A DNA stretch of 63,494 bases, filler included. It is 7 parts of 7 records of this genome, joined end to end, with 100 filler letters (N's around TTAATTAATTAA, not from the genome) between each part and the next. Parts side by side here need not be neighbours in the genome. Positions count along the whole stretch, not along the records: positions 22,777 to 35,164 come from SRR31147125_7390; 6 more parts are not named here. One strand, given 5' to 3'. The translations under genes were made by a program, and so were the position numbers. Shown in pieces: positions 22,226 through 51,455 of the stretch. Below the pieces are notes generated by a model. The model was not told the origin of the DNA and did not search any database. It worked only from the letters and a program-made list of their open reading frames with translations. Positions within the stretch are counted from its first letter, which is position 1. The number at the start of each line of letters is the position of its first letter.

Positions 22226-22676
22226 ATGAATAATGTTTTCTCAATCAAAGACAGAGTTGCGGTAATTACTGGTGGTGCGCAGGGGCTTGGTAGAGCGCTT
22301 GCAGAGAGATTGGTTCGTGAAGGCTGTAGAGTAGTGATCGGTGATATTCAGGAAGAGGTGGTCAAGCAGACTGCTGCAGAGATTCAAGAAGAATTTGGTG
22401 GTGAAGTGGTTGGAGTTAAAGTAGATGTTACTCAGGAAGCAGAGTGTGCAAACCTTATCAATACTGCGATGGAAAAATTTGGTAAAGTTGATATCGCGGT
22501 TGCGAACGCTGCTATTCTGATTGCTGAAGAGATTACAGAAGCTGACGCTGCGAAGTGGGCAAAAGTGATTGAGGTCAACCTCATCGGTTACTTCAACTTT
22601 GCCAAGCAGGCTGCTATTGTTATGAAAAAGGCTGAATCGGGCGCGATTATTCAAATAAACTCAAAGTCTGGAAAAA
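22226..22676 (+). CDS. srlD: SDR, sorbitol-6-phosphate dehydrogenase-like (3' truncated)
   Basis: TGGAQGLG, VNLIGYF, IIQINSKSGK (typical of SrlD). Confidence 0.65.
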
Positions 22677-22776
22677 NNNNNNNNNNNNNNNNNNNNNNNN
22701 NNNNNNNNNNNNNNNNNNNNTTAATTAATTAANNNNNNNNNNNNNNNNNNNNNNNNNNNNNNNNNNNNNNNNNNNN
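22677..22776. other. Artificial contig spacer
   Basis: N44-TTAATTAATTAA-N44. Confidence 0.99.
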
Positions 22777-25793: not shown

Positions 25794-28700
25794 ATGAGTA
25801 GATTTAAAGAGCTGTCCCAGATGTATAAAGATGGGACGATTGGCGAGAGTATCAGAGGCGAAGAAAATATCGACAGGTTTTTAACTTACAGTGGAAAACA
25901 TTACAAACTGGATTTCGACCAATGCCTTTGTGCCTATGCACAAAGCCCAGAGGCTACAGCGTTCGCAACGTATGATGTCTGGAATGTTTATCTGAACAGG
26001 AAAATCATTAGAGGTAGCAAAGCTACTCTATTACCAGACGATAAATCAACAAACGGAGTTAAGTACGTTTTTGACGTAGCCGACACCAAGGGTGCACCCT
26101 TGCCTGAGCATTGGAAAATGCGAGAAGAACATAGGGATGAAGTAATTGCAAAACTGGATAGAGAGTTTGGAATTAAAAGAACCTTTGAACTTGATAACAT
26201 TGAAAATGTTGAAAGTGCCGTTGCACACAGCAATGACCAAATGCGTTTTGCAAACAAAGAAGTCATAAAGAAATATTGTGATTATAACAATGTATCCTTT
26301 TACGATGTATACGATGATATACAGGAATGTAGTAATGAAATAGTTGCAAGACGCTTGGAAATTGATACAGGTAATACATTAGATTTATCAAGAATGAATG
26401 AAGAATACTCCCCTGCTCTAGTAGAGAAAATTTTGAGGACAAGTTCTAACTCTGCACAAGCAGTATTATTAGAAATTGAAAAGACTGTAAAGTCATACGA
26501 AAAAAACAAAGTGAAAGAAAGGAACTTTGAAAATGAAAAATACACAAAAGAAAATAACATATCATCAGAACGAGGACGGAATGATGTACCCGAACATAAC
26601 ACCGCCAGAGAACCACGTGCCAACAACAGCGTTGGGCAAGTGGGGCAAAAAGGCACTGATATATCTACAGGAATATCAGCCGATAGCGGTGGAATATTAC
26701 AGCAAGACAATGGAACTGAATCCGATACTACAGAGAGTGGACGAACAGGCAGCGGAATATCTGATAGCAATAACCAAGAAATTGAAAGAGCAGATACCCG
26801 CTCCGAAGTCGGACAATCCGTTAGTGAAAATACGGTACAACAACCAGATAGCGGAACAAGCAGAGAAACTAATGTTGAGCGAAGTGGTATTTCAGCCGCA
26901 CGTGACGGACAGTCAAGCGTTAGAAGAAATGAACAAATAACTGGTGAGTTTAACGAACAGTTAGAATTATACAAAGGTGTTGACTGGTCTGAAAGTGAAT
27001 GGCAAAACATGTTGACATTCACATATCCAGAAACAGCAATCTTAGCATTTGAAAATGGATTAGATGTAAGAGTTATTGGAAAGGTCGAAGATGATACCTA
27101 TCCATTAACAAGTGTTGAGGATATACAAAAACATTTTCAAGCACAAAGATTAATTGCTACTACAGCACCAGAAGATGTACGTCAAATATATATTGACAAG
27201 AACCATGAGATTACATCTAAAATACTTGAAGATACTATCAAACCCAAAAGGCACAGACGTACTCAACCAGAAATGAACTATGCAAGGTTGCAAGAAATTG
27301 CACCAAAGTTCTTTGATGGTAGATATGACTATCAAAAGATGCAAGCAGGTGATGCAATGATGCCGCTGTCTTTTGACAAGTTGCATTATGAAAGTGAAAA
27401 TGTGGCGGTAATCAGCATTGCACATACCTTTGTGCAAAATGGTGATTTGATGTCTGACCCAGACATGGAGTTAAGAGTTGACTTTGAAAATAAGACGGTT
27501 GAGCCGCTTAGTTTCACTCAACACAGTATGGGAATATATCATCAAGTTTATAATGAAGATGGTACAAAATACAGTCCACAACTTAGAAAGGAACTCAATG
27601 CTTTTTTGTCACAGTGGACAAAAAATATTCAATCACAAGGTTATCAAATTGAAAAAGCATACTACAATGATAAGCTAAAAGAAGAATTAGGAGAGCCGTC
27701 ATTTAATGACCAAGGACAGGAAATAGGATTTGATGTTGCAGTTCAACCAGAGGGCGAAACAGTTACTAAAAATATCTATGAACCTGCAGCAGAGGAATTT
27801 GATAAGCAATTTTACATGGATGAAGTATTGCTTGATGGTAGTAACTTTGAGGGCGGAAAACAAAGAATTATTGATTACTTCGCAGAGAATAGTAATAATT
27901 CTGATAGAGCCGTTTTCTTGAAAAAGGAATACGGAATAGGTGGCGGCACTAAGCATTATTCAAACGGTGTTCAAGGTCATGCTAACCATGACGGTAAAGG
28001 AATATCCGCAGAAGTTAGCTATAGTGATGAACCGATTGAACACTATACATATGCTAAAGCCGCAAAAAGAATAGGTGAATTACTTGAAAATGGCAGGTAC
28101 TTTAAACCAAGATATGCAAGTGAAAAACCCTTAACTGGTAGAGAAAAATTTGCAGTTCAGATGCAAATGGATTTGACACCAGTTACTGAAAGTCGCATTC
28201 CTACGGAAAGATTTGATGCAAATACGATGTGGTCAAATGTACAATGGGACTTTGTAGAAACATACGATTATCCAGAACACGCACGTAACGCATTTAATGA
28301 GGGCATAGAAATACGTCGTATTGGCGAGGGAATGAATGCCTACCCTATTAACTCTTTAGAAGAACTAAATAGGGATATAGATAACAAAGAATTTTTAGGT
28401 AGTGTAGTAAGTGACGATATAAAAGATAGATTTTTTGAACTGCAAGAGCAAGCAAGATTGGAAGATGTTGCCGCTAAATATGCAGAGAAAATAAAAGACG
28501 AGATTGAATCAGAACCGATTGATTTTGTTATCACAGATGAAAGCTATGCAAACACACCGACAAGTAAAAGAGAGCGTTATAATGCCAATGTAAATGCTAT
28601 AAAAGTATTACAAGATATTGAGAGCGGTGAGATTATTGCAACAGATGAAAGCAGAGAAATAATCTCTAAGTATACTGGTTGGGGTGGTCTGCAAGAACCA

Positions 28701-31700
28701 TTTGATGAAAATAATTTATCATGGCAAAACGAGTACAAAGAACTAGAGAGCCTGTTATCTGCAAGCGAATATGCAGATGCTAGACGTTCTGTATTGGATG
28801 CCTATTATACTTCACCACAGATAACGCAAACCATATACGGAGCATTAGAGAAGTTTGGGTTTGATGGTGGAAAAGTATTAGAGCCTAGTATGGGAGTTGG
28901 TAATTTCATTGGTACAATGCCAATGGAAATGAGAGATAAGAGTTTAATAACTGGTGTTGAAATTGATAGCGTATCTGGAAGAATATCTAAGGTACTGTAC
29001 CCAGATGTTGATGTAAACATAAAAGGATTTCAAGATACAAATTTCAGAGATAACCAGTTTGACATAGTTGTAGGTAATGTACCTTTTGGAGAAGTTCATA
29101 TCTATGACAAGGAATATAAAGGCAGAACTTTAATACATGATTACTTTTTCAAAAAGTCAATCGATAAAGTTCGCCCAGACGGTATAATTGCATTAGTATC
29201 ATCTAGCGGCACAATGGATAAAGCCGACGATACTGTTCGCAGATACATATCTGAAAGAACAGATCATGTCGGCTCAATAAGACTTAATGAAGATATGTTC
29301 ACTGGAACAAAAGTGACTACAGATATTATCTTCTTACGAAAAAAAGATAATATCACAGAGCATAGTACAGACTTTACAGAGATTGCAGAAAATGCAGACG
29401 GTGTAAAAATGAATAAATATTTTGTCGAAAATCCTCAAATGATTGTCGGCAAAATGGTTAGCCGTAATGGTAGATTTGGTGAAGAAACTGCTTGTATTAA
29501 TGATGATACTATTGATATAAATACACAGCTTGATAAGGCAATTCATCATTTAACTACGGATGTAGTGATGGAAAAATCACTAAGTGATGTAGAGGAAATA
29601 CCAAAGGAAATTACTGTAGACCAATTACAAGATGCATCCGAACCAACAGTAGATGCTTTCTCAATGGTGATAAAAGACAACGAGTTACTTTACAATAATG
29701 ATGGTGTCTTTGAGCCAGTAAAGAGAGCCAAGACCAACGGAGTTAGATACAATAGATGTAAAGACTTGATTGCAGTAAGAGATAGTTTTAAGAAACTATT
29801 AGATGCTGAAATGTCTAATGAGAATGATGCAATAATTGAAAACGCTAGAGAAGAATTAAATAATTCTTATGACACTTTTATTAAAAATGAAATAAAGCGT
29901 GTTGCAAAAAATCAAGTCCAAGAAGTTGGCATCAACACCGACGTTGTTTCTAAAGACTTTAATATGGATGGTGGTTATCCGTTGATTTGTTCATTAGAGG
30001 ACAAAGATGCGGCAACAGGAAACTATATAAAATCAAAAGTATTTACTCAAAGGACTATAAGTCCCAAAATAAATATTGTTAGTGCTAAAGATTCACATGA
30101 GGCATTGATGCTTTCTTTAAGTGAAAGGACGAAAGTGGATATTCCATATATGGCAGCATTAACAAATCAGACACCAGAAGAAGTAATTAGTGAATTAAAA
30201 GGTGAAATATATCGTAATCCATCAGAAGTAAATAATGATATTCCTTACAGTGGTTATGAAACAAAAAGTCATTACTTATCTGGGGATGTAGTAAATAAAT
30301 TAGCAGTAGCACATCACCATACAGCACTGGATGAAAGTTATAGAGATAACGTAATTGCACTTGAAGAAGTCCAACCAGAACCATTAAAATCTGGTGACAT
30401 TGATATGAAACTTGGTAGCACATGGATACCAGTAAATCACTTCGAGCAGTTTGCAAGAGATATATTTAACTCCCATAGTAGGTATGATGGTGATGTTGAG
30501 ATTGCATTTAATCCGTATAATGCGAGATATGAAATAACAAATAGACCATCTGTATACAACAAAGAATGTTCATACATTTATGGTTTATCCAGTGCACATC
30601 ATAAAAATGGTTACAGAATATTAGAAGATACTTTAAACATGATGCCAACAACGATAACCACAAAAGACAGTGATGGAAATACAATAGTTGATAAAGTTGC
30701 AACAGCAAGGGCGAGAGAAAAACAGGAATTATTAAAAGATAAATTTAAAGAGTGGGTAAGACTTGACTATAACAGAGAACAGGAATTGGTTGATACATAT
30801 AACGGAAAGTTTAACACCTTAGTACCACGTGAATTTGATGGTAGTGGGTATGTATTTCCACACCAAAGTCCGTTTTTTGAATTAAGACCTCACCAAAAAA
30901 ATGCAGTAGCAAGAATAATGCAAACACAAACTTGTTTGTTAGCACATGAAGTTGGTGCAGGAAAATCGGCAGTTATGGCAACGGCAGGACATGAAATGAA
31001 AAGGCTTGGAACTGCTAACAAGGTATTATATGTTGTGCCTAATCACTTAGTAGGACAAATGGCACAAGAGATATATAAGGTTTATCCATCATCAAATCTA
31101 TTGATATTGGATAGCAAGAGAGATATGTCAAAATTGAAAAAAGATATATCACTTGGTAAAATATTAACAGGTGATTATGACGGTATAATCATGGCTCATT
31201 CGTCATTTGACAGAATTGGTATATCAGATGACCTAAGACAAAAAGTCTTACAACAACAACTTGACGAGGTTGTAGATACTCTTGCTGTAACAGATGACGG
31301 AGCAAGAAGAACCGTAAGACAACTTGAAATTGCTCAACAAAATCTTATCAGTCAATTATCAGAATTAGATAACAGACAAATAAAATCAAATGTGCTGAAT
31401 TTTGATGATTTAGGTATTGATGCAATGTTAGTTGACGAGGCACACGCTTATAAGAACGCATTAGTATATACGAAAATGACTGGTGTATCTGGTGTTAGTT
31501 CTTCGCCTAGTGGTCGTGCAAATGATATGCTTGCTAAAGTAGACTTTATGACATCAAATAATAAGAAAGTTATATTTGCGACTGGAACACCAGTATCTAA
31601 TACACTTTCAGAAATGTACATAATGCAAAGATACTTACAGCCGCAGGAATTAAGAAAAAGGCATTTACATTCATTTGATAGGTGGGCATCAACTTTTGCA

Positions 31701-33347
31701 GAGCCAAAGACAGAATATGAAATGGCAGTAGATGCAAAATCATATAAGTCAAAAACTCGGTTGACACAGTTTAACAATCTGCCAGAATTGATGCAGATAT
31801 ATAAACTTATGGCTGACGTACAGACACAAGAATCTTTGAATTTGCCAAGACCAAAAGTAATAGGTGGTAAACCAACGGTAATAACTGTTGAGGCAAGCCC
31901 AGAAGTAAAAAGAGCACAAGAGGAACTAGTTCGAAGATATGACGCAGTACAATCAGGTGGTATAGATAAATCAGTAGATAATCCATTAAAGATAACTACA
32001 GACGGAAAAATGATAGCCTTAGATATAAGGTTAAGGAAACCAGAAACAGAAGATACAGGCGATAATAAAATTGATGCAGTAGCAGATAATGTTCATAAAT
32101 TATGGGAGCAACACGCTGATACTAGAGCGACACAACTTGTATTTAGTGATATAGGCACTCCTAAAACTGATGGCACATTTGATGTGTATAATACTCTTAA
32201 AAAGAAACTCATGGATAAAGGTATTCCACAGGAAGAAATAGCATTTATACATGACTGCAATAATGACAAACAAAAGCAAGATTTATTTGCAAAGGTTCGT
32301 AGTGGTGATGTAAGGGTATTGGTTGGTTCAACTGAAAAAATGGGAACAGGAATGAATGTGCAAGATAGACTTCTAGCACTTCATCATATAGATGTACCTT
32401 GGAAACCAGACCAAATAGAACAACGTGAGGGAAGAATAAAAAGATTTGGTAACATGTTCGATGAAGTTCATATTTTCAGATATGTAACTAAAGGAACATT
32501 TGATGCTTATATGTGGCAAGTTATTGAAAGTAAGAATAAATTCACATCTAAAGTTATGTCTCCAAAACGAGTAACACAAAGAAGTATTGAGAATATAGAT
32601 GCAAGAGCGTTGGAGTATGCAGAGGTAAAAGCATTAGCAAGTGGTAATCCTTTAATAAAGGAAAGGATGGACTTAATGGCTAAAGTCAACAGGCTTGAAA
32701 TGATTAAGCAAGACAGTATAAATATGCTTAGTGATATTAGAGGTCAAGAAAAAAGGCTTGAAGTTGAGATTGCAGGTGGTATAAGTGCAATAGAAAAAAC
32801 ACAGATGGATATTGACAAAAGAAAAGGACTTGAAGATACAGATGATTTTGAAATAGTTATCAACGGAAAAACTATTACAGATAAAAAAGCAGGTGTCGGA
32901 ATATTACATCACACTATCAAAGGAGTGTCGCCAATGAAAGGAGGTGAGTATAAAGACATAGGTGAGTACCAAGGATTTACAATAAGAGTAATGCCGTCTG
33001 GTTTCCATATGGCAGAAAATAAATTGTATCTTGTAGATAATGACTACTACGAATTTGCACAGAGTGAAACCGAAACAGGCACATTTACAAGAATGAATAA
33101 TGTAGCAAAAGGACTTGATAAAAAACTGATAAATCTTAATAAAGAATTGGATTATAGGAAACAAGACCTTAAGATTGTAAAAGATAAAATTGCTACAGGC
33201 TCAACGTTCGATAAGCAAGAGGAACTTGATAAGCTGAAAAAGCGACAAGCAAAAATTGATAAGGAATTGATTAAAACCACCGCAAAAGCAAAGCAAAAGG
33301 ATAAAGCCAAAGATTTAGAAAATAACCCAAAGGACTTAGACCGTTAA
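25794..33347 (+). CDS. Large polyvalent protein: N6-adenine methyltransferase + SNF2/SF2 helicase (DarB-like)
   Basis: VLEPSMGVGNF and GNVPF MTase motifs; AHEVGAGKS, VDEAH, ATGTP, GTGMNVQ and EQREGRIKR helicase motifs; N-terminal AT(Y)DVWN...GSKA ArdC-N-like region; DUF1249-like HTFVQNGDLMSDPDME domain. Confidence 0.88.
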   Translation: MSRFKELSQMYKDGTIGESIRGEENIDRFLTYSGKHYKLDFDQCLCAYAQSPEATAFATYDVWNVYLNRKIIRGSKATLLPDDKSTNGVKYVFDVADTKGAPLPEHWKMREEHRDEVIAKLDREFGIKRTFELDNIENVESAVAHSNDQMRFANKEVIKKYCDYNNVSFYDVYDDIQECSNEIVARRLEIDTGNTLDLSRMNEEYSPALVEKILRTSSNSAQAVLLEIEKTVKSYEKNKVKERNFENEKYTKENNISSERGRNDVPEHNTAREPRANNSVGQVGQKGTDISTGISADSGGILQQDNGTESDTTESGRTGSGISDSNNQEIERADTRSEVGQSVSENTVQQPDSGTSRETNVERSGISAARDGQSSVRRNEQITGEFNEQLELYKGVDWSESEWQNMLTFTYPETAILAFENGLDVRVIGKVEDDTYPLTSVEDIQKHFQAQRLIATTAPEDVRQIYIDKNHEITSKILEDTIKPKRHRRTQPEMNYARLQEIAPKFFDGRYDYQKMQAGDAMMPLSFDKLHYESENVAVISIAHTFVQNGDLMSDPDMELRVDFENKTVEPLSFTQHSMGIYHQVYNEDGTKYSPQLRKELNAFLSQWTKNIQSQGYQIEKAYYNDKLKEELGEPSFNDQGQEIGFDVAVQPEGETVTKNIYEPAAEEFDKQFYMDEVLLDGSNFEGGKQRIIDYFAENSNNSDRAVFLKKEYGIGGGTKHYSNGVQGHANHDGKGISAEVSYSDEPIEHYTYAKAAKRIGELLENGRYFKPRYASEKPLTGREKFAVQMQMDLTPVTESRIPTERFDANTMWSNVQWDFVETYDYPEHARNAFNEGIEIRRIGEGMNAYPINSLEELNRDIDNKEFLGSVVSDDIKDRFFELQEQARLEDVAAKYAEKIKDEIESEPIDFVITDESYANTPTSKRERYNANVNAIKVLQDIESGEIIATDESREIISKYTGWGGLQEPFDENNLSWQNEYKELESLLSASEYADARRSVLDAYYTSPQITQTIYGALEKFGFDGGKVLEPSMGVGNFIGTMPMEMRDKSLITGVEIDSVSGRISKVLYPDVDVNIKGFQDTNFRDNQFDIVVGNVPFGEVHIYDKEYKGRTLIHDYFFKKSIDKVRPDGIIALVSSSGTMDKADDTVRRYISERTDHVGSIRLNEDMFTGTKVTTDIIFLRKKDNITEHSTDFTEIAENADGVKMNKYFVENPQMIVGKMVSRNGRFGEETACINDDTIDINTQLDKAIHHLTTDVVMEKSLSDVEEIPKEITVDQLQDASEPTVDAFSMVIKDNELLYNNDGVFEPVKRAKTNGVRYNRCKDLIAVRDSFKKLLDAEMSNENDAIIENAREELNNSYDTFIKNEIKRVAKNQVQEVGINTDVVSKDFNMDGGYPLICSLEDKDAATGNYIKSKVFTQRTISPKINIVSAKDSHEALMLSLSERTKVDIPYMAALTNQTPEEVISELKGEIYRNPSEVNNDIPYSGYETKSHYLSGDVVNKLAVAHHHTALDESYRDNVIALEEVQPEPLKSGDIDMKLGSTWIPVNHFEQFARDIFNSHSRYDGDVEIAFNPYNARYEITNRPSVYNKECSYIYGLSSAHHKNGYRILEDTLNMMPTTITTKDSDGNTIVDKVATARAREKQELLKDKFKEWVRLDYNREQELVDTYNGKFNTLVPREFDGSGYVFPHQSPFFELRPHQKNAVARIMQTQTCLLAHEVGAGKSAVMATAGHEMKRLGTANKVLYVVPNHLVGQMAQEIYKVYPSSNLLILDSKRDMSKLKKDISLGKILTGDYDGIIMAHSSFDRIGISDDLRQKVLQQQLDEVVDTLAVTDDGARRTVRQLEIAQQNLISQLSELDNRQIKSNVLNFDDLGIDAMLVDEAHAYKNALVYTKMTGVSGVSSSPSGRANDMLAKVDFMTSNNKKVIFATGTPVSNTLSEMYIMQRYLQPQELRKRHLHSFDRWASTFAEPKTEYEMAVDAKSYKSKTRLTQFNNLPELMQIYKLMADVQTQESLNLPRPKVIGGKPTVITVEASPEVKRAQEELVRRYDAVQSGGIDKSVDNPLKITTDGKMIALDIRLRKPETEDTGDNKIDAVADNVHKLWEQHADTRATQLVFSDIGTPKTDGTFDVYNTLKKKLMDKGIPQEEIAFIHDCNNDKQKQDLFAKVRSGDVRVLVGSTEKMGTGMNVQDRLLALHHIDVPWKPDQIEQREGRIKRFGNMFDEVHIFRYVTKGTFDAYMWQVIESKNKFTSKVMSPKRVTQRSIENIDARALEYAEVKALASGNPLIKERMDLMAKVNRLEMIKQDSINMLSDIRGQEKRLEVEIAGGISAIEKTQMDIDKRKGLEDTDDFEIVINGKTITDKKAGVGILHHTIKGVSPMKGGEYKDIGEYQGFTIRVMPSGFHMAENKLYLVDNDYYEFAQSETETGTFTRMNNVAKGLDKKLINLNKELDYRKQDLKIVKDKIATGSTFDKQEELDKLKKRQAKIDKELIKTTAKAKQKDKAKDLENNPKDLDR
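26533..26940 (+). CDS. tnpV: TnpV-family protein nested in the +1 frame of the helicase gene
   Basis: ITY..NEDGMMYPNI...LGKWGKKALIYLQEYQP...LNPILQRVDEQA...RYNNQIAEQAEKLMLSEVVF follows the TnpV pattern; AAGGA RBS at 26519-23. Confidence 0.7.
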   Translation: MKNTQKKITYHQNEDGMMYPNITPPENHVPTTALGKWGKKALIYLQEYQPIAVEYYSKTMELNPILQRVDEQAAEYLIAITKKLKEQIPAPKSDNPLVKIRYNNQIAEQAEKLMLSEVVFQPHVTDSQALEEMNK

Positions 33348-33381: not shown

Positions 33382-34230
33382 ATGGATAAGAAAAATTCCA
33401 TAAGAATAGATGAATTATTAGCAAATATTAAAAAAGAGACTGACATAATAGAAATACCAAAATTAAATTTTGAATTTATTAGTGACGATAAGTTAAGCAA
33501 AATGGTGCCTGTAAATAGAGATATGGTTGAAACAATGCTAGCATGCGGAGCAATGCCAGTAGAAATAGGCTCGCACCCTATTAATTATGGAAGTAACAAG
33601 GGTGACTATGTTAGCGTTAATATTAATGAAAATGAAGATATAGAGGAAATAATTAATTATAGTATAAGAAATAATGAATATTTTTATGTTCACAATTCAT
33701 ACAAAGATGGAAAAATGATATCTGAAAATGTAAAAGAAATATCAAAAATAATGAAAGAAGAAAATATAAGTATCGCAGAAATAAAAGAAAGGAGATTAGC
33801 CATAACAAAAAAAGTAAAAGCACAAAAGTCAGTTTCAAACACAATGTCAGAGTTGAATCAAGATGCTGACGGTAAAGTACTCAATAAAGATTCAAAACCT
33901 TATATAAAAACACAGGGAAATTTAGCTAGTGATGTGGAAGTGAAAAAAAGTAAAAAAGGTGAGCTATACTCAAAAGTAATTATTGCTGAAAATCATAAAG
34001 ATGGAACTACCAATTACTATACCACCATTGCTAAAGGAAAACAACTTAACAAAATGAAAGGCTATAAAAAAGGTCAATTTGTAGAAGTTGAAGGCATATG
34101 CAAACTAGAGCCTAAACTTGGCAATGATGGAAAAGCAAAATTAGATGTTACTATGTTCGTAAGCAATACAAAAAACCTTGAACAAAATGTAGAAAAGCAA
34201 AAAGCGCAACAAACTAATCTAGAGAGGTAA
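33382..34230 (+). CDS. Protein with a C-terminal SSB-like OB-fold
   Basis: GNLASDVEVKKSKKG...YKKGQFVEVEG; AGGAGG RBS. Confidence 0.7.
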   Translation: MDKKNSIRIDELLANIKKETDIIEIPKLNFEFISDDKLSKMVPVNRDMVETMLACGAMPVEIGSHPINYGSNKGDYVSVNINENEDIEEIINYSIRNNEYFYVHNSYKDGKMISENVKEISKIMKEENISIAEIKERRLAITKKVKAQKSVSNTMSELNQDADGKVLNKDSKPYIKTQGNLASDVEVKKSKKGELYSKVIIAENHKDGTTNYYTTIAKGKQLNKMKGYKKGQFVEVEGICKLEPKLGNDGKAKLDVTMFVSNTKNLEQNVEKQKAQQTNLER

Positions 34231-34639: not shown

Positions 34640-35053
34640 ATGGAACAACAAAAGAATAAAGACAAACAACAATATCCAGACACTTGGACAAAAGTATCTG
34701 GAAACTTGGTAGCAGACCCAGAGGTCAAAACAAGTAAAAAGGATGAGAAATATGCCGAGGCTACAATCATTGATAACAACAGTAAAGACAAACAGGCTCA
34801 TAAGCTGATTGGTAAAGGCAAGCAGAAAGAACAAATGATGCAGTACAAAAAAGGCGATTATGTTTATGCAGAGGGCGGTTCTAAAACAAAGCAATACACA
34901 AACAAAAAAGGTCAAGAAAAGACCGACAGCACAGTCTTTGTTCAAAGGTCAAAGAAATTGGAGAAGAAAAAAGAAAAAGAGCAAAACAAAAAGCAAAACA
35001 AAAAGCAAGGACTTGGCAAAAAGAAAGCGGCAGGAAAAGGATTTGACAGGTAA
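34640..35053 (+). CDS. SSB-like OB-fold protein
   Basis: VSGNLVADPEVK...YKKGDYVYAEG...KQYTNKKG; lysine-rich tail instead of the acidic DDDIPF tip. Confidence 0.72.
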   Translation: MEQQKNKDKQQYPDTWTKVSGNLVADPEVKTSKKDEKYAEATIIDNNSKDKQAHKLIGKGKQKEQMMQYKKGDYVYAEGGSKTKQYTNKKGQEKTDSTVFVQRSKKLEKKKEKEQNKKQNKKQGLGKKKAAGKGFDR

Positions 35054-37657: not shown

Positions 37658-38535
37658 ATGATTAAAACAGTAAATTTAACAAAGTATTATAAAAAACATG
37701 CAAGAGGCATACTTGATGTTTCACTGGATATTAAAAAAGGTGAAATATTTGGATTTATTGGACCAAATGGTGCTGGGAAATCAACAACAGTTAGAACGCT
37801 ACTTAATCTAATATTTCCAACGAGTGGGCATGCGACGATTAATGATTTAGATATTATCAGTGATAGTGTAGCCATTAGAAAACACATTGGATATATTCCA
37901 AGTGAAGTCAATTTATATAGTGATATGAAAGTCATAGATTTTTTAAATTATGCAACAACATTTCACGATAAAGTAGATTTAGATAGACAAAAATATTTAA
38001 TTGAATCATTAGAATTAGATGTTTCTAGAAAAATGAGTGAGTTATCATTTGGTAATAAAAAGAAAGTTGCTATTGTTCAAGCATTGCAATCAAGCCCGGA
38101 GTTGTTAATTTTAGATGAACCAACATCAGGCTTAGATCCCCTTATGCAAAATACATTTTTTAAACTTATTCTAGAAGAGAAAAAAGAGGTGCAACCATCT
38201 TTTTCTCATCACACATCTTAAGTGAAGTTCAGCGTATATGTGATAGAGTTGCTATCATTAAAGAAGGACAAATTATTAAAATTGAAAAAGTAGAAGATAT
38301 ACTAAAAGCACGTGCAAAAAAAATTAAACTCAAAACAAAACAACCCCTTAAACAAACAAAAGATATGATTGATTTTAAACACGAGAATAGCCATGTGACA
38401 TTTGTTTATACAAAACCAATTGCTAACCTACTTCAGATGTTATCATCACTTGATATCGAAGATTTAACCATCACTGAACCTTCATTAGAAGAAATATTTA
38501 TGCACTATTATGAGAAACAGGAGTTAAACATATGA
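37658..38535 (+). pseudogene. ABC-2 exporter ATP-binding protein, frameshifted at an A6 run
   Basis: GPNGAGKST, LDEPT. Adding one A at 38180-85 restores RGATIFFSSHILSEVQRICDRV... ending in TGA 38535, which overlaps the next ATG. Probably a sequencing indel. Confidence 0.8.
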
Positions 38536-45521: not shown

Positions 45522-47081
45522 ATGAACAATAAGATCAAACAAAGTGATATCAACTCTGCGGCCTGGTCAGCTTGCGATACGTTCCGTGGAGTGGTGGATC
45601 CGGCGCAATATAAAGACTATATCCTGGTGATGTTATTTTTGAAATATATCTCGGATGTATGGCAGGCACATTATGATGAATATCAAAAAGAATACGGCAA
45701 TGATCCGGAGCGGATTGAACGACGCTTAAAACGCGAACGCTTTGTCCTGCCGATGATAGAGATCACGGATCCCTCGGATTTGAGTGTTGTAAAAGAACGT
45801 TTCAGGGCTTCTTATCACAGCTTGTATGAACGACGCAATGCGGCCAATATCGGCGAACTGATCAACATCGTGCTTGAACATATTGAAGAAGCGAACAAGG
45901 AAAAGCTCGAAAAAGTGTTCAGGAATATCAATTTCAACTCGGAGCCTAATCTTGGTCAGACCAAAGACCGCAACCGCCGTTTGAAGCAATTGCTGGAGGA
46001 TTTTAATAAAAAAGAATTGGATATGCATCCTTCGCGGGTTAACGAAGATATTATCGGAAGCACCTATATTTATCTGATCGAACGTTTTGCGGCCGATTCC
46101 GGGAAAAAGGCAGGAGAATTCTTTACGCCCTTGAATGTAACGCGTTTGGTTGCAAAATTAGCGCAACCCAAGGCGGGTGATAAGATATGTGATCCCGCTT
46201 GCGGATCCGGTGGTTTGCTGGTTCAAGCTGCTTACGAGGTCGGCTCGGATGATGTTGCGCTATATGGACAAGAATCCAACGGCTCCACCTGGGCGTTGTG
46301 TCGCATGAATATGTTTTTGCATAATTTTGATGCCGCACGTATCGAATGGTGCGACACCTTGAACAGTCCTTTGCTGATCGAAGACGACAAGCTTATTAAA
46401 TATAACTGCGTTGTGGCAAATCCCCCGTTTTCTTTGGACAAATGGGGTGAAGAGAATGCTCAGAGCGATCCATTTAATCGTTTCTGGCGCGGCGTGCCTC
46501 CCAAGAGCAAAGGCGACTGGGCCTTTATTACGCACATGATCGAAACCGCCTTGGAAAAAGAAGGCCGGGTGTCGGTGGTGGTCCCACACGGTGTCTTATT
46601 CCGCGGAGCCCGCGAAGGCAAGATACGCCAGCACATGATCGACGAAAATTTACTGGATGCCGTGATTGGATTACCGGCAAATCTCTTTCCCACTACATCT
46701 ATTCCGGTGGCTATTTTGGTCTTTGACCGCGCCCGCGAAGCAGGCGGAGCCGAAGAAAACCGTAAGGATGTGCTGTTCATTGATGCCAGTAAAGAATTTA
46801 TGCCGGGTAAAAACCAGAATATCCTCAGCGAAGAGTATCTTGAAAAGATCGTAAAGACTTATAAAGAGAGAAAAGATGTTGAGAAGTACGCGCAGATCGC
46901 CACGATCGATGAGATCAGGGAAAACGACTATAATCTGAACATCCCGCGCTATGTGGATACTTTTGAAGAGGAAGAAGAGATCGATATCGATGTCGTCCAG
47001 GCAGAGATCGATGAATTGGAAAAAGAACTGGCAGTCGTAAGAAAGCAAATGGCGGAAAAACTGAAGGAAATACAAAGATAG
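45522..47081 (+). CDS. hsdM: Type I R-M methyltransferase subunit
   Basis: GEFFTP, DPACGSGG, ANPPF, YNLNIPRYV. Confidence 0.95.
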   Translation: MNNKIKQSDINSAAWSACDTFRGVVDPAQYKDYILVMLFLKYISDVWQAHYDEYQKEYGNDPERIERRLKRERFVLPMIEITDPSDLSVVKERFRASYHSLYERRNAANIGELINIVLEHIEEANKEKLEKVFRNINFNSEPNLGQTKDRNRRLKQLLEDFNKKELDMHPSRVNEDIIGSTYIYLIERFAADSGKKAGEFFTPLNVTRLVAKLAQPKAGDKICDPACGSGGLLVQAAYEVGSDDVALYGQESNGSTWALCRMNMFLHNFDAARIEWCDTLNSPLLIEDDKLIKYNCVVANPPFSLDKWGEENAQSDPFNRFWRGVPPKSKGDWAFITHMIETALEKEGRVSVVVPHGVLFRGAREGKIRQHMIDENLLDAVIGLPANLFPTTSIPVAILVFDRAREAGGAEENRKDVLFIDASKEFMPGKNQNILSEEYLEKIVKTYKERKDVEKYAQIATIDEIRENDYNLNIPRYVDTFEEEEEIDIDVVQAEIDELEKELAVVRKQMAEKLKEIQR

Positions 47082-47200
47082 ATAATGTGTTCAAACCATT
47101 TTACCGACGTCGGCAACATGGTCTGTAGCTACTGTAACATATCTTAAAAGCAACTATCCGAAATTTCCGGATGGTTCAAACAAAACAAAGAGGGTGACGT

Positions 47201-47515
47201 ATGAAAGAGAAGACATTGGAAAAACAGCACAAGAAAACATTTGATGATCTAAAACACATCAATGCGGATGATCGAGAATTTTGGTATGCCCGGGATCTGC
47301 AAAGAGCGCTTGATTATTCGCGCTGGGAAAAGTTTTTTCCTGTCGTTGAAAAAGCGAAAACCGCTTGTGATAATTCTGAGCAGGCTGTCGACAACCATTT
47401 TCACCAAATGGTGAAAATGGTCCTTATCGGATCAGGAAGTCAGCGGATTGATAAGCATTTCGTGGAGATGCGCGAGATGGCGACTAGTTTCCCTGTAGCC
47501 GGAGGTCTGTTATGA
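47201..47515 (+). pseudogene. dinD: DinD/BRO-N-like N-terminal fragment
   Basis: EFWYARDLQRALDYSRWEKF...KAKTAC...NHFHQMVKMV.IGSGSQR; ends after a second NHF-like motif. Confidence 0.65.
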
Positions 47516-48369
47516 AAGAGATCATTAAAGCAAACGGTACGGAAATTTCAGTGATTTCATCTTTTGGAAAAGAAGATTTCATATCATTAACAGATATTGC
47601 TAGATATAAGAACCGGCAAGAACCCAAAGATGTTGTAAAAAATTGGCTGAGAAATAGAAGTACTATAGAGTTTCTGGGTATTTGGGAGCAAATAAACAAC
47701 CCTGATTTTAAAGGGGTCGAATTCGACTCCTTTATAGAGCAATCCGGTGCTAATGCGTTTACATTATCACCCAAACGATGGATAGAAAACACCCATGCGA
47801 TTGGCATTGTATCAAAATCGGGTCGTTATGGAGGAACTTACGCGCATAAGGATATTGCTTTTGAGTTTGCTTCCTGGATCTCAGCTGAATTCAAATTGTA
47901 TATTATTAAAGATTACCAGCGCTTAAAAGCGGATGAGAACAGCAAACTTTCCCTTTCATGGAATGTAAACCGCATGATCTCCAAAATCAATTATCGTATT
48001 CAAACGGATGCCGTAAAAGAGCATTTGATCCCGGAAAAAGTAACGGCAAAACAGCGTTCTTTTGCCTATGCCGATGAAGCAGATCTGTTAAATATTGCCA
48101 TGTTTGGGATGACCGCTAAAGAATGGCGAGAGCAAAACCAGGATGCGAAAGGCAATATACGGGATAGTGCGACAGTACAACAATTAATTGTGCTGTCGAA
48201 TTTAGAAAGTATGAACGCGGAATTGATCAATGATAAGATCCCGCAAAGTGACAGACTCAAACGATTAAATGATATGGCGATCAGACAGATGGGGGCATTG
48301 GTGGAAAATGATCATATTAAAAAACTTGAAAAAGAGATAAAAAAAGATAAACCCGAACTTGAGGAATAA
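47512..48369 (+). CDS. KilA-N domain DNA-binding protein
   Basis: DFISLTDIARY, NWLRNRSTIEFLGIWE, GRYGGTYAHKDIAFEFASWIS. Confidence 0.9.
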   Translation: MKEIIKANGTEISVISSFGKEDFISLTDIARYKNRQEPKDVVKNWLRNRSTIEFLGIWEQINNPDFKGVEFDSFIEQSGANAFTLSPKRWIENTHAIGIVSKSGRYGGTYAHKDIAFEFASWISAEFKLYIIKDYQRLKADENSKLSLSWNVNRMISKINYRIQTDAVKEHLIPEKVTAKQRSFAYADEADLLNIAMFGMTAKEWREQNQDAKGNIRDSATVQQLIVLSNLESMNAELINDKIPQSDRLKRLNDMAIRQMGALVENDHIKKLEKEIKKDKPELEE

Positions 48370-48370
48370 G

Positions 48371-50224
48371 ATGGGTGAACAGAAAAAACATAATGAACAT
48401 ATAACAACTTATCTTGATTGGTATTTAGATCTTGAAAATCCTGAATTTGCTTTTATGGTCAAAGGAGATTGGGGAACAGGCAAGTCGTTTTTTATAAAAG
48501 AATATCAAAAAGAGAAACATAATGCTTACAAGTTTGTGAATATTTCACTTAATGGTGTTTCTAATATTGAAGAAATCTCAAAGCAATTTCTTGCTTCATA
48601 CTTTCCCGCATTGAATAATAAATACTCAAATATTATTTTTAATTTAGTAGCGGGAACAGCTAACCATTTTGGATATAATTCGTTATTAGCCAAATTGAAA
48701 TATCGCGACTTTATTGATTCATTAAATTACAACAAGGAAAAGAAATGTATTATTGTTTTTGATGACTTTGAACGTCATTGTTTTAAATCTCATCAGACAG
48801 CAATGGGTTTTATAAATACTTTTATTGAAAAGAATAAGCTTAATGTGATCATTGTATCAAATGAAGATGATATAAATAAAGAGAAAAACAATAAGTATGA
48901 TCTAATAAAAGAAAAGGTTATTGGACAAACTTTAACAATTGATACACCCGTTAAATATGTTTTTGATTTAATACTGGAAGATTTGTCAAAAAATGAAAAA
49001 ACAAGAAAGGCTATCGAGGTTATCAAAAACTACTATGACGTTGTATTTGAAATCATTGAAAAGAGTGAATGTCGAAATTTTCGTGTTATCCGACAAACAA
49101 TACAGAATTTTTCACGATTGGCTGAGCTTGTTGATTTAAAGTATCTCAAAAATGAGACATTTACCGGCAGATTAATAATTATATTTTTTGCTTTTGAAAT
49201 AGAACACAGAATCGGAAAGCTCAATGCAAAAATCTTTGATGAAATTCGGGGAGGTGGATATATCTTTGCGGTCGAAGGAAAAGATGATCGCTATAAAACT
49301 AAAGTTACTAATGAGATGCGAGAAGCATGGGAGATATTGAAAAAATATAATTTTAGCACCCTATACGACACTTTTGTATTTGATACTGCAACCTGGAGAA
49401 AGTGGTTGTTTGAAGGCAATATATCCAAGGATATTATTTTCAAAAATATCGAGAGCAGTAATTATTTTAATAAAGAAACCAATATTTCGAAAATTGTTGA
49501 CTGGATAGATCTTTCTGATGACGAATTCAATCAGGTTATTAAAGAAATAATCAATAAAATTAAAAATCAAGAACTAAGGAATTCATCAGATATATTTTTA
49601 GTATATAACAGATTCCTTTATTTTGGTAAGCACGGCTATGATTTCTCGGAATTATCGACAGGTGATATTAATAATGTTTTTCTAGATTATATTAATGAAA
49701 TCAGCAAGAAAGGTTTACTAGAAGAAGATTACAACTTTTTACACCAAGATTATAGCCCACAAGGCAATGTTGATAAATATAACAATGTAAAATCTAGTCT
49801 CTTGTTAGCAATTCAAAAAGCATCTATGAAAGACGATGAAGTAAGGGCAAACAAAGTTCTTTCTATTATGAAAACTGATCCCAAAAAAGCCGGCAACATG
49901 ATTTGTAAAATAATTGATGAAGATACGGAACAACCTAAAAAATTATTTGAATTTATTGACTCTAATGAATTCGTTGATCGCTATAATGATATTGATAATA
50001 AAGACAAAAGAATAATATGCTATAAAATTAAAGATCGATTCAGAATTATTCATCATAATGAGTGGTTGTTGGATGAAAAAGAATTTATTGAAAAATCAAT
50101 CGAATACATTCAAGAAAGAATTGAAAAAGAAGCATATTCTCCCTCGGTTTTCAACCTTGAACAATTGAAAATAGCGCTTGAAAAAGGTATTGAAATAATG
50201 GAAGCATATGAAAAAAATAAATGA
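48371..50224 (+). CDS. KAP-family P-loop NTPase
   Basis: Walker A GDWGTGKS, Walker B IIVFDDFER, KEKVIG, NFR; GAGG RBS before the ATG at 48371. Confidence 0.8.
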   Translation: MGEQKKHNEHITTYLDWYLDLENPEFAFMVKGDWGTGKSFFIKEYQKEKHNAYKFVNISLNGVSNIEEISKQFLASYFPALNNKYSNIIFNLVAGTANHFGYNSLLAKLKYRDFIDSLNYNKEKKCIIVFDDFERHCFKSHQTAMGFINTFIEKNKLNVIIVSNEDDINKEKNNKYDLIKEKVIGQTLTIDTPVKYVFDLILEDLSKNEKTRKAIEVIKNYYDVVFEIIEKSECRNFRVIRQTIQNFSRLAELVDLKYLKNETFTGRLIIIFFAFEIEHRIGKLNAKIFDEIRGGGYIFAVEGKDDRYKTKVTNEMREAWEILKKYNFSTLYDTFVFDTATWRKWLFEGNISKDIIFKNIESSNYFNKETNISKIVDWIDLSDDEFNQVIKEIINKIKNQELRNSSDIFLVYNRFLYFGKHGYDFSELSTGDINNVFLDYINEISKKGLLEEDYNFLHQDYSPQGNVDKYNNVKSSLLLAIQKASMKDDEVRANKVLSIMKTDPKKAGNMICKIIDEDTEQPKKLFEFIDSNEFVDRYNDIDNKDKRIICYKIKDRFRIIHHNEWLLDEKEFIEKSIEYIQERIEKEAYSPSVFNLEQLKIALEKGIEIMEAYEKNK

Positions 50225-50237
50225 AGAAAGTACCTAA

Positions 50238-51455
50238 ATGAAAAATATTCCGAATAATTGGAAATCCTTAAAGCTCAAAAGCTTAATTACTCAGGGGGTA
50301 AAGAATGGGTATTCACCTAATTGCCCTGAAGAACCAAATGGCAGTTGGATATTGAGCTTAGGAAACTTAGCCGAAAATGGTTTCGATGCCACTCAAGCTA
50401 AACCAGCCCCCAAAGATGATAAAAGAGTAGATGATTTTCTATTAAAACCTGGTGATTTTCTGATTAGTCGTTCTAATACCCTAGATAAGGTTGGCAGGAC
50501 AATATTGTTTCGTGGTGAAATTAAAAACTGTTCTTATCCTGATCTGCTCATGAGATTTCGCGTTGACGAAACCCAAATAGCAAATGAGTATTTGGAAGGA
50601 TATTTAAGAAGTTCAATTGTAAGAAGATATATCCAAGAATGTGCTTCAGGAACAAGTAGCAGTATGGTTAAAATTAACAAAAAAGTGGTCGAAAAAATAC
50701 CAGTTTTACTCCCTCCTCTTCCGGAACAACACGCAGTAGCCGATATTCTATCCACCTGGAATGAAGCGATTGAGAAAATGGAGAACATAATAAATAAATA
50801 TGAAAATAAACTGAACGGATTGTATCAATATTATTTTACTCCTAATAAGGCAAATAATAAATACTGGGGAAAAACAAAAATAAGTGAAATTCTCAAACAG
50901 AGAAATAATCAAATTTTACCGACTGAAAATCAACCCTTATATTCATTAACAATTGAAAAAGGTATAACTGAAAAAACTGATAGATATAATAGAGAAGCAT
51001 TAGTAAAAGATATTAGTAATAAGAAATATAAAGTTGTTTACCCCAATGATATTGTGTTTAATCCAGCTAATCTTCGCTGGGGAGCAATTTCGCGTTCACA
51101 AATCTCACATAGAGTTGTTGTATCACCAATTTATGAAGTTTTAATGGTTAATAATGACAAAGTCGATATTGATTTTATTAGTCATCTTTTAACTTGCCCA
51201 AGACAGATTGGAATATACTCAACAAAAACAGAAGGATCGCTTGTTGAGCGAATGGCTGTAAAGCTTGATGCATTTTTATTACTTGATATCCAAATACCCT
51301 GCGACTTAAAAGAACAACGGGAAATTTCAGGTGTTTTAAATAGAGCTCAAAAGGAAATTGATTTATTAAAACAACTAACGGAAAATTACAAACTTCAAAA
51401 ACGTGGCCTAATGCAGAAACTGCTGACAGGTGAGTGGAGGGTGAAGGGGGTATAG
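50238..51455 (+). CDS. hsdS: Type I R-M specificity subunit
   Basis: Two TRDs; LPPLPEQ..ADIL; QKRGLMQKLLTG. Confidence 0.92.
   Translation: MKNIPNNWKSLKLKSLITQGVKNGYSPNCPEEPNGSWILSLGNLAENGFDATQAKPAPKDDKRVDDFLLKPGDFLISRSNTLDKVGRTILFRGEIKNCSYPDLLMRFRVDETQIANEYLEGYLRSSIVRRYIQECASGTSSSMVKINKKVVEKIPVLLPPLPEQHAVADILSTWNEAIEKMENIINKYENKLNGLYQYYFTPNKANNKYWGKTKISEILKQRNNQILPTENQPLYSLTIEKGITEKTDRYNREALVKDISNKKYKVVYPNDIVFNPANLRWGAISRSQISHRVVVSPIYEVLMVNNDKVDIDFISHLLTCPRQIGIYSTKTEGSLVERMAVKLDAFLLLDIQIPCDLKEQREISGVLNRAQKEIDLLKQLTENYKLQKRGLMQKLLTGEWRVKGV

Follow-up and report, generated by a model that had tools for sequence, protein, structure and literature searches.

A TnpV-family gene nested in the +1 frame of a giant ArdC-N-like/methylase/SNF2-helicase gene and conserved on plasmids of the Firmicutes

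Complete small genes embedded out of frame in a larger gene of the same strand, each with its own start, are known from Rz/Rz1 of phage lambda and from comS inside srfAB of Bacillus subtilis. In Rz/Rz1 the embedded frame is also +1, as in the case described here, and the two products work together. Long overlaps of genes in different frames are contested in bacteria, and for most proposed cases no homologues are known. The name TnpV originates from Tn4451-type clostridial transposons, and DarB of phage P1 is a giant fusion of a methyltransferase and a helicase that belongs to a mobile element. The present report concerns a TnpV-family gene in a stretch of 63,494 nucleotides (the window), made of seven joined parts of one genome; all positions are those of the window unless a locus is named. 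The gene (26533..26940, + strand; 135 amino acids and a TAA stop) lies entirely inside, and in the +1 frame of, a giant open reading frame (ORF; 25794..33347, + strand) for a polyvalent protein of 2517 amino acids with an ArdC-N-like head, a DUF6908 domain, an N6 methylase and an SNF2 helicase. The two form a real, conserved, same-strand nested gene pair, beyond what chance produces. The arrangement is a variant of the known nested genes. It shares with Rz/Rz1 and comS/srfAB a complete small gene embedded out of frame on the same strand, and differs from them in that the embedded gene comes from an old, widespread family and appears to hold the more constrained frame, while the host frame seems to serve only as a tether within a protein of some 2500 residues; it is also conserved across classes of Firmicutes.

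ArdC-N domains often stand N-terminally in polyvalent proteins and are typical of conjugative elements (Iyer et al. 2017, PMC5512222). The giant protein resembles those described in that paper in carrying an ArdC-N-type head, then LPD-type domains, a methylase and an SNF2 helicase on a single polypeptide. The concept described in the main text is without a second gene hidden in a linker, and the terms 'TnpV', 'overlapping' and 'frameshift' occur 0 times there. ArdC of plasmid R388 is linked to overcoming the restriction of the recipient in conjugation (PMC7213743). It shares with the giant protein the family of the N-terminal domain that binds single-stranded DNA (ssDNA), but the R388 head pairs with a metalloprotease domain, whereas in the giant protein a methylase-helicase follows the head and the DNA also codes for TnpV. 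A further difference is that the head in the window alone falls short of the Pfam model ArdcN.

The domains of the giant protein follow one another on the + strand. The N-terminal ArdC-N-like domain (25794..26510, approximately residues 1-239) was recognized by tblastn and alignment; Pfam searches placed DUF6908 at 27285..27644 (residues 498-617), the N-6 DNA methylase domain at 28767..29405 (residues 992-1204), the SNF2/ResIII helicase N-lobe at 30876..31769 (residues 1695-1992) and Helicase_C at 32193..32450 (residues 2134-2219). With the methylase, SNF2/ResIII and Helicase_C all in one ORF, the protein is a polyvalent methylase-helicase. A Pfam scan of residues 1-246 of the window protein returned 0 families at E ≤ 0.01, so no ArdcN match was obtained, and a sequence search of the PDB with the head profile gave 0 matches at E ≤ 1. 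ArdcN (PF08401) does match 5 of the 16 aligned homologous heads (best E 1.8e-6), the head from the window not being among them; W63, R69, D94 and T98 are invariant in the alignment. Matches of the head found by tblastn fall under RefSeq coding sequences (CDSs) named 'ArdC-like ssDNA-binding domain-containing protein'. By homology to the heads that match ArdcN, approximately the first 240 residues are thus classed as ArdC-N-like. The first-pass annotation of the window had called the protein DarB-like. The methylase and helicase part of this label stands; because the head is an ArdC-N-like ssDNA-binding domain, 'conjugative-element polyvalent protein' is more exact and is preferred here. The giant protein is like DarB, in the general description of the latter, as a methyltransferase-helicase fusion on a mobile element, and unlike it in that its nearest relatives found were proteins of plasmids and of integrative and conjugative elements with an ArdC-N head.

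The nested ORF spans 26527/26533..26940 on the + strand, its 135 residues being counted from the ATG at 26533. This ATG lies 739 nt downstream of the ATG of the giant ORF, which gives the offset of +1. A Shine-Dalgarno (SD)-like AAGGA (26519..26523, +) precedes the ATG by 9 nt and is contained within K-E-R-N codons of the host frame. The +1 frame carries a TGA stop at 26512..26514 (+), 6 codons before the nested ATG, which limits fusion from the host frame by frameshifting. Read in the host frame, the overlap (26535..26939, +; approximately residues 248-382 of the giant) is a hydrophilic low-complexity linker, ...ERGRNDVPEHNTAREP...SGRTGSGISDSNNQ..., rich in S, G, D, E, T and R. Hydrophobic residues make up 13% of the linker frame versus 33% of the N-terminal domain and 33% of TnpV. 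The first-pass annotation had described a 135-codon +1 ORF, with AAGGA 9 nt before its ATG, inside a 2517-aa ORF whose own frame reads as a disordered-type S/G/D/E/T-rich linker; its coordinates and translations agree with ours, and the linker text that it quoted was recovered identically. The T content is 15.7% in the overlap versus 25-26% in the flanks, and T occupies 8.8% of the third positions of the TnpV codons. By a rough count, 22 of 33 ORF starts in the window have an SD motif.

The nested protein matches the Pfam family TnpV (PF14198) with 56.9 bits (E 2.3e-15, cut-off 27) over model positions 1-111 of 111, so that the family assignment made from the letters alone was borne out by the profile hidden Markov model (HMM) over its full length. 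Its relatives in a protein library, as found by phmmer, number 84 and are mostly 110-140 aa long; one library protein, P0017 (207 aa), consists of two tandem TnpV units, the first of them incomplete. An AlphaFold2 model of TnpV has a mean predicted local distance difference test (pLDDT) score of 93.1 and places a beta-hairpin at residues 10-20, followed by helices at 36-48, 50-58, 62-87, 96-119 and 126-134. The model thus describes the nested protein as a compact, well-folded member of the TnpV family. In length (approximately 110-135 aa), in the full-length match and in the order of hairpin and helices it is like other TnpV proteins, and in a tree the nested forms cluster with standalone TnpV genes that follow genes for serine recombinases or helix-turn-helix proteins. 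It differs from these in having no space of its own, being placed in the +1 frame of another gene, and in codons that are chosen so that the other frame stays open.

Homologous loci were sought among 72,556 plasmids. With tblastn, the nested protein of the window and two plasmid versions of it matched 10, 34 and 39 plasmid records, respectively. In 25 distinct records the CDS over the TnpV match bears an SNF2-related, helicase-related, LPD25 or pentapeptide-protein annotation; these records come from Listeria seeligeri, Virgibacillus, Bacillus cereus/thuringiensis/wiedmannii, Clostridium perfringens, C. botulinum, Enterococcus faecalis, E. hirae and E. wangshanyuanii. The N-terminal 239 aa of the giant, used as a separate tblastn query, matched 165 records, 95 of them from Listeria; many Listeria plasmids among these matches carry an 'ArdC-like' annotation. 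Five loci were chosen through the head alone: Listeria pLM58-55 and pLI100, E. faecalis pAT41-b, a Carnobacterium plasmid and Ruminococcus albus pRUMAL02. In the latter three, all six frames were searched with an HMM of TnpV proteins from the library, and the two Listeria loci were also translated in three frames. A +1 TnpV ORF was present in 5/5; the giants of pAT41-b, Carnobacterium and R. albus all carry it (3/3), with E values from 4e-13 to 6e-25 in our own HMM. Two records annotated as 'TnpV protein', from Cohnella and Monoglobus, both proved to be nested in giant ORFs, which look frameshifted near their 3' ends. A blastn search of the plasmids with 25794-27600 gave no match, and searches of genome contigs for related loci with an alignment and with the library protein P0019 gave no relative. 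On the plasmids, the giant gene often lies a few genes downstream of a MobP2 relaxase gene.

The set used for comparison consists of the window and 20 Firmicutes plasmid loci. In all 21 loci the offset is +1, the nested start lies 171-286 codons into the giant gene, and the host frame contains 0 stops over the overlap; the third frame contains 11-22. In 20 loci the nested gene begins with an ATG that an SD-like motif precedes by 5-18 nt; in the remaining one a GTG follows GAGAGAAGGA. The conserved open +1 TnpV ORF with an SD-like motif that the first-pass annotation expected in homologous giants is therefore present in 21/21 loci. In no locus does the TnpV frame extend far upstream: a stop closes it 0-12 codons before the start, and 0-1 codon before it in 7 of the 21. 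Nested frames from five plasmids, when tested against the Pfam TnpV model, scored 62-84 bits. The giant CDS of locus L012 (C. botulinum pGA0702E1CS) has the RefSeq name 'pentapeptide repeat-containing protein'; it shows the same ArdC-N/SNF2 architecture with a nested TnpV, whose start is probably GTG.

The arrangement was also found in human-gut metagenomes. A scan of metagenome contigs with the library protein P0087 returned 558 human-gut relatives, 80 of which were kept; 77 of these have a TnpV match and 3 do not. At 70 of the 77 the gene lies within a giant ORF, offset by +1, and the longest of these ORFs has 2727 aa; in 5 the head and TnpV stand in one frame, and 2 are cut by the end of the contig. 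A metagenome contig search with an alignment of the closest TnpV relatives of the window gave no match. That sequencing or assembly indels fused separate genes in the window is a negligible possibility, given that the same architecture recurs in 20 plasmid loci and 70 metagenome loci. In addition, a separate contig assembly of a DNA run covers 25794-27600 at a word depth of 77 with 0 differences and 0 gaps, although this contig is not an independent check because it is possibly the source of the window itself. With the architecture conserved across complete plasmids and the contig clean, indel artefacts are ruled out as the cause of the overlap.

Whether the host frame could be open by accident was examined by codon resampling at 15 loci. 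The TnpV protein was held fixed and its codons were redrawn from the usage of the giant gene, with 20,000 resamples per locus. For the window, a mean of 11.4 host-frame stops is expected, and 0 of 20,000 resamples were free of stops; across the 15 loci the expectation ranges from 8.3 to 14.9, again with 0/20,000 stop-free in each. A host-frame stop needs a TnpV codon ending in T followed by a codon beginning with AA, AG or GA. In the 15 nested genes T stands before such codons at 0/621 third positions, compared with 209/1101 of the other third positions. At such stop-making sites T was found in 33/219 cases in six genes first taken as standalone. One of the six, the Cohnella gene, was rejected as standalone, having 0 host-frame stops and proving to be nested; the five truly standalone TnpV genes have 4-14 stops in the corresponding frame. 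We attribute the low T content to selection for an open host frame and not to an independent cause.

These counts bear on the idea that the giant ORF is an illusion of annotation, the ArdC-N part being a short gene of its own, followed by tnpV and by an independent methylase-helicase gene, with frame 0 open by accident. The RefSeq record L016 does annotate the downstream part in this way, with TnpV and an SNF2 CDS that starts after it, and a T-poor region lowers the stop frequency in all frames. The host frame nevertheless has 0 stops in 21/21 loci and in 35/35 gut sequences against 8-15 expected, T is avoided exactly at the positions that would make host stops, such stops do occur in standalone TnpV genes, and 11-22 stops remain in the third frame despite the low T. 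We regard this explanation as very unlikely.

Selection on the two frames was compared by the distribution of substitutions. In 8/8 related pairs the differences peak at position 3 of the TnpV codons, with fewer residue changes in TnpV than in the host frame; for L004 versus L005 there are 6, 2 and 13 nucleotide differences at positions 1, 2 and 3, and 5 residue changes in TnpV versus 18 in the host frame. Among 35 distinct gut sequences, in which host-frame stops are absent throughout, the variable sites number 15, 10 and 26 by TnpV codon position 1, 2 and 3, and the variable residue columns are 21/119 in TnpV versus 39/119 in the host frame. In 91 pairs of homologues, TnpV has a median identity of 27% and the host frame one of 18%, TnpV being higher in 90 of the 91. 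Because substitutions pile up at the TnpV wobble positions, the comparison shows TnpV to be the constrained frame, under purifying selection for its amino-acid sequence, in line with what the first-pass annotation expected of a comparison per frame. By the same comparison, the host (linker) frame is kept only for staying open and hydrophilic and is otherwise unconstrained.

The substitution pattern also bears on the view that the nested frame is a relic, that is, an old tnpV swallowed when its neighbors fused, still TnpV-like but no longer expressed. Nested ORFs are often non-functional, the exact sequence of the nested protein is absent from a collection of 5.8 billion protein clusters, and no RNA run is listed as holding the window stretch. 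A relic would be expected to show substitutions of the opposite kind, together with stops; here most substitutions leave the TnpV residues unchanged and alter those of the host frame, and the ORF is complete with start and SD and scores 57-84 bits in Pfam across lineages that share only about 27% identity. The relic reading is accordingly given very little credence, as little as an accidentally open host frame.

The reading that we consider probable is true dual coding of 26533-26940, with TnpV started internally on the mRNA of the giant gene. Frame 0 would provide a disordered, hydrophilic tether that joins the ArdC-N-like ssDNA-binding head to the rest of the methylase/SNF2-helicase protein, and frame +1 would be the complete gene for a folded TnpV-family protein of 135 aa. 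Ribosomes would start TnpV at its own SD and ATG inside the giant mRNA. The conservation of a start codon and of an SD at the canonical distance from it speaks for internal initiation, and if TnpV is made in this way it should be present whenever the giant gene is transcribed. A scan for internal promoters found 10 sites versus 6.4 ± 3.2 in shuffled sequences, an uninformative difference.

A +1 ribosomal frameshift (programmed), or transcriptional slippage, could instead yield a fusion of head and TnpV of about 370 aa, in place of internal initiation or besides it. In-frame proteins of this kind exist in the library, P0019 (369 aa) and P0087 (408 aa), and the 'ArdC-like' protein of Listeria pFV4 (329 aa) matches both ArdcN (25.8 bits) and TnpV (25.8 bits); compared with the nested Listeria form, pFV4 is one base shorter in an A-run that shortly precedes the SD. 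In 21/21 loci, however, no more than 0-12 codons of open +1 frame precede the conserved start (0-1 in 7), which leaves almost no room to shift, and all of them have a start codon and SD at canonical spacing, which a frameshift would not need. The A7 run of the window lies upstream of the TGA at 26512-26514. The pFV4 form results from the nested form by loss of a single base and leaves the remainder of the giant broken, and the gut in-frame forms (5/77) look like indel errors or mutants because the four with coverage given in their contig names have approximately 1-2.6x. Frameshifting is therefore regarded as unlikely, though less so than a relic frame or an accidentally open host frame. In-frame ArdC-N-TnpV proteins were likewise considered as an independent sign of a functional link and rejected as such, on account of the one-base deletion in Listeria and of the gut forms being 5/77, with low coverage in the four for which it is given. 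In the Listeria monocytogenes pFV4 locus (L029, 2516-3505, compared with L030 and L031), the base loss in the A-run fuses the head with TnpV, and the broken remainder of the giant is followed by IS6.

Several observations weigh against internal initiation on a dual-coding mRNA, or narrow its base. The loci are mutually related, the 21 representing perhaps a dozen independent lineages according to the tree, and the gut loci are mostly a single lineage with 92-99% identity. The SD-like GAAAGG also codes for Glu-Arg in the host frame, from which its conservation may partly stem. The in-frame ArdC-N-TnpV forms in library proteins, pFV4 and gut loci allow for a fused product, and none of the RNA runs is listed as holding the stretch. 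As regards a functional lead, Foldseek with the TnpV model gave 0 matches in the PDB at E ≤ 0.001, and the best match in a wide VIA-align search with the same model was a generic helical one (Z 5.8). No relaxase or type IV secretion genes were detected among the window ORFs scanned, and the giant gene in the window looks like part of a chromosomal island; the role in conjugation therefore rests on the plasmid homologues. Since the position of TnpV beside the ArdC-N head is fixed, binding to the head (residues 1-245) was examined by prediction of the complex in three runs in which alignments were not used. The score had a median of 0.60 (runs 0.60, 0.59 and 0.81) versus 0.00 for the best control, for which the verdict is 'weak support' only. 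In calibration, 51 of 78 solved complexes attained this mark, as did 2 of 108 mismatched pairs; scores ≤ 0.60 were seen for only 5 of the 78 solved complexes and for each of the 4 mismatches that passed. Agreement between the runs extends to at least 23% of contacts, with a partner pLDDT of at least 77.

Binding of TnpV to the ArdC-N-like head is thus put forward as a tentative, model-based proposal that we consider somewhat doubtful. Also tentatively, TnpV would work with the head, and may bind it, both acting on the DNA of the mobile element in the protection or establishment of transferred DNA. A role of TnpV as a chaperone or regulator is conjecture. An unrooted tree of 19 nested and 5 standalone TnpV proteins shows the two states intermixed, with three changes needed, of which the starred branches force at least two. 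The linker is probably the younger reading, made when the flanking genes fused by read-through, and the embedded gene appears to be the older one; this is judged from the TnpV family living standalone as well and from the linker frame having almost no conserved sequence. Taken together, the following course of events is possible, although we hold it to be improbable as a whole: an ArdC-N-type ssDNA binder and a methylase-helicase were fused by read-through across tnpV in the other frame, the old gene surviving in the new tether; TnpV would dock on the head as its obligate partner, the two being made in step from one mRNA, and both would act on the transferred strand as it enters a new cell. 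The standalone Tn4451-type TnpV genes would then be escapees or donors, since nested and standalone forms intermix in the tree.

The annotation of such loci in public records is uneven. The expectation of the first-pass annotation that gene callers discard the nested ORF holds for some records, which give the giant alone; in others RefSeq annotates TnpV and truncates the giant instead. Among such ORFs, the entries named 'TnpV protein' have the giant cut short or absent. L016 (E. faecalis pEFM9-2) and L026 (pKUB3006-2) are identical in DNA over locus positions 801-2000 (1.2 kb) and differ in annotation: one is given a single SNF2 CDS of 6291 nt, the other a 'TnpV protein' and a later-starting SNF2 CDS, with the ArdC-N head unannotated. 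The explanation that RefSeq annotates TnpV only where the giant is broken was rejected, these two loci being identical over 801-2000. Because records give either the giant alone or TnpV with a headless giant, one product is missing from each annotation.

A literature search, with supplements and subscription journals outside its scope, turned up no description of TnpV nested within a helicase gene, and 'TnpV' occurs 0 times in the ArdC-N domain paper PMC6222260. The pair provides a clean bacterial overlap, in which the embedded gene belongs to a recognized family and selection is measurable on both frames across classes of Firmicutes, and it could serve as a positive control for methods of overlap detection. 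The larger gene appears to use the alternative frame of the embedded gene only as a tether. Unusual is the combination of three traits: an embedded gene that bears a family assignment and seems constrained, a host frame that would be the tether of a giant protein, and a spread over many plasmids and gut elements. The arrangement occurs on plasmids of Enterococcus, Listeria, the Bacillus cereus group and Clostridium and in abundant gut elements. The fixed pairing with an ArdC-N-type ssDNA binder offers a first testable hypothesis for the function of TnpV.

An antisense ORF of 240 aa (26300..27022, - strand; Cys/Ser/Leu-rich) overlaps the nested pair. As a third gene it was rejected, the antisense frame being open in only 4/21 loci and the ORF having no credible Pfam match; that it is open follows from the low T content. 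Two genes of the single-stranded DNA-binding protein (SSB) family lie immediately downstream of the giant gene, one at 33382-34230 (+; 282 aa, its SSB domain being C-terminal) and one at 34640-35053 (+; 137 aa). The two SSB genes behind the giant fit a module for handling ssDNA. The other neighbors of the giant gene in the window are housekeeping and transport genes. A 168-aa ORF (22226-22732, +) that matches only positions 1-142 of 195 of the adh_short model and a 187-aa ABC_tran ORF with a partial domain (37658-38221, +) are possible gene fragments near the island. Farther along the window, 45522-51455 (+) contains a type I restriction-modification hsdM gene (N6_Mtase and HsdM_N) and an hsdS-like gene, with a KilA-N gene and a gene for a KAP-family nucleoside triphosphatase between them.

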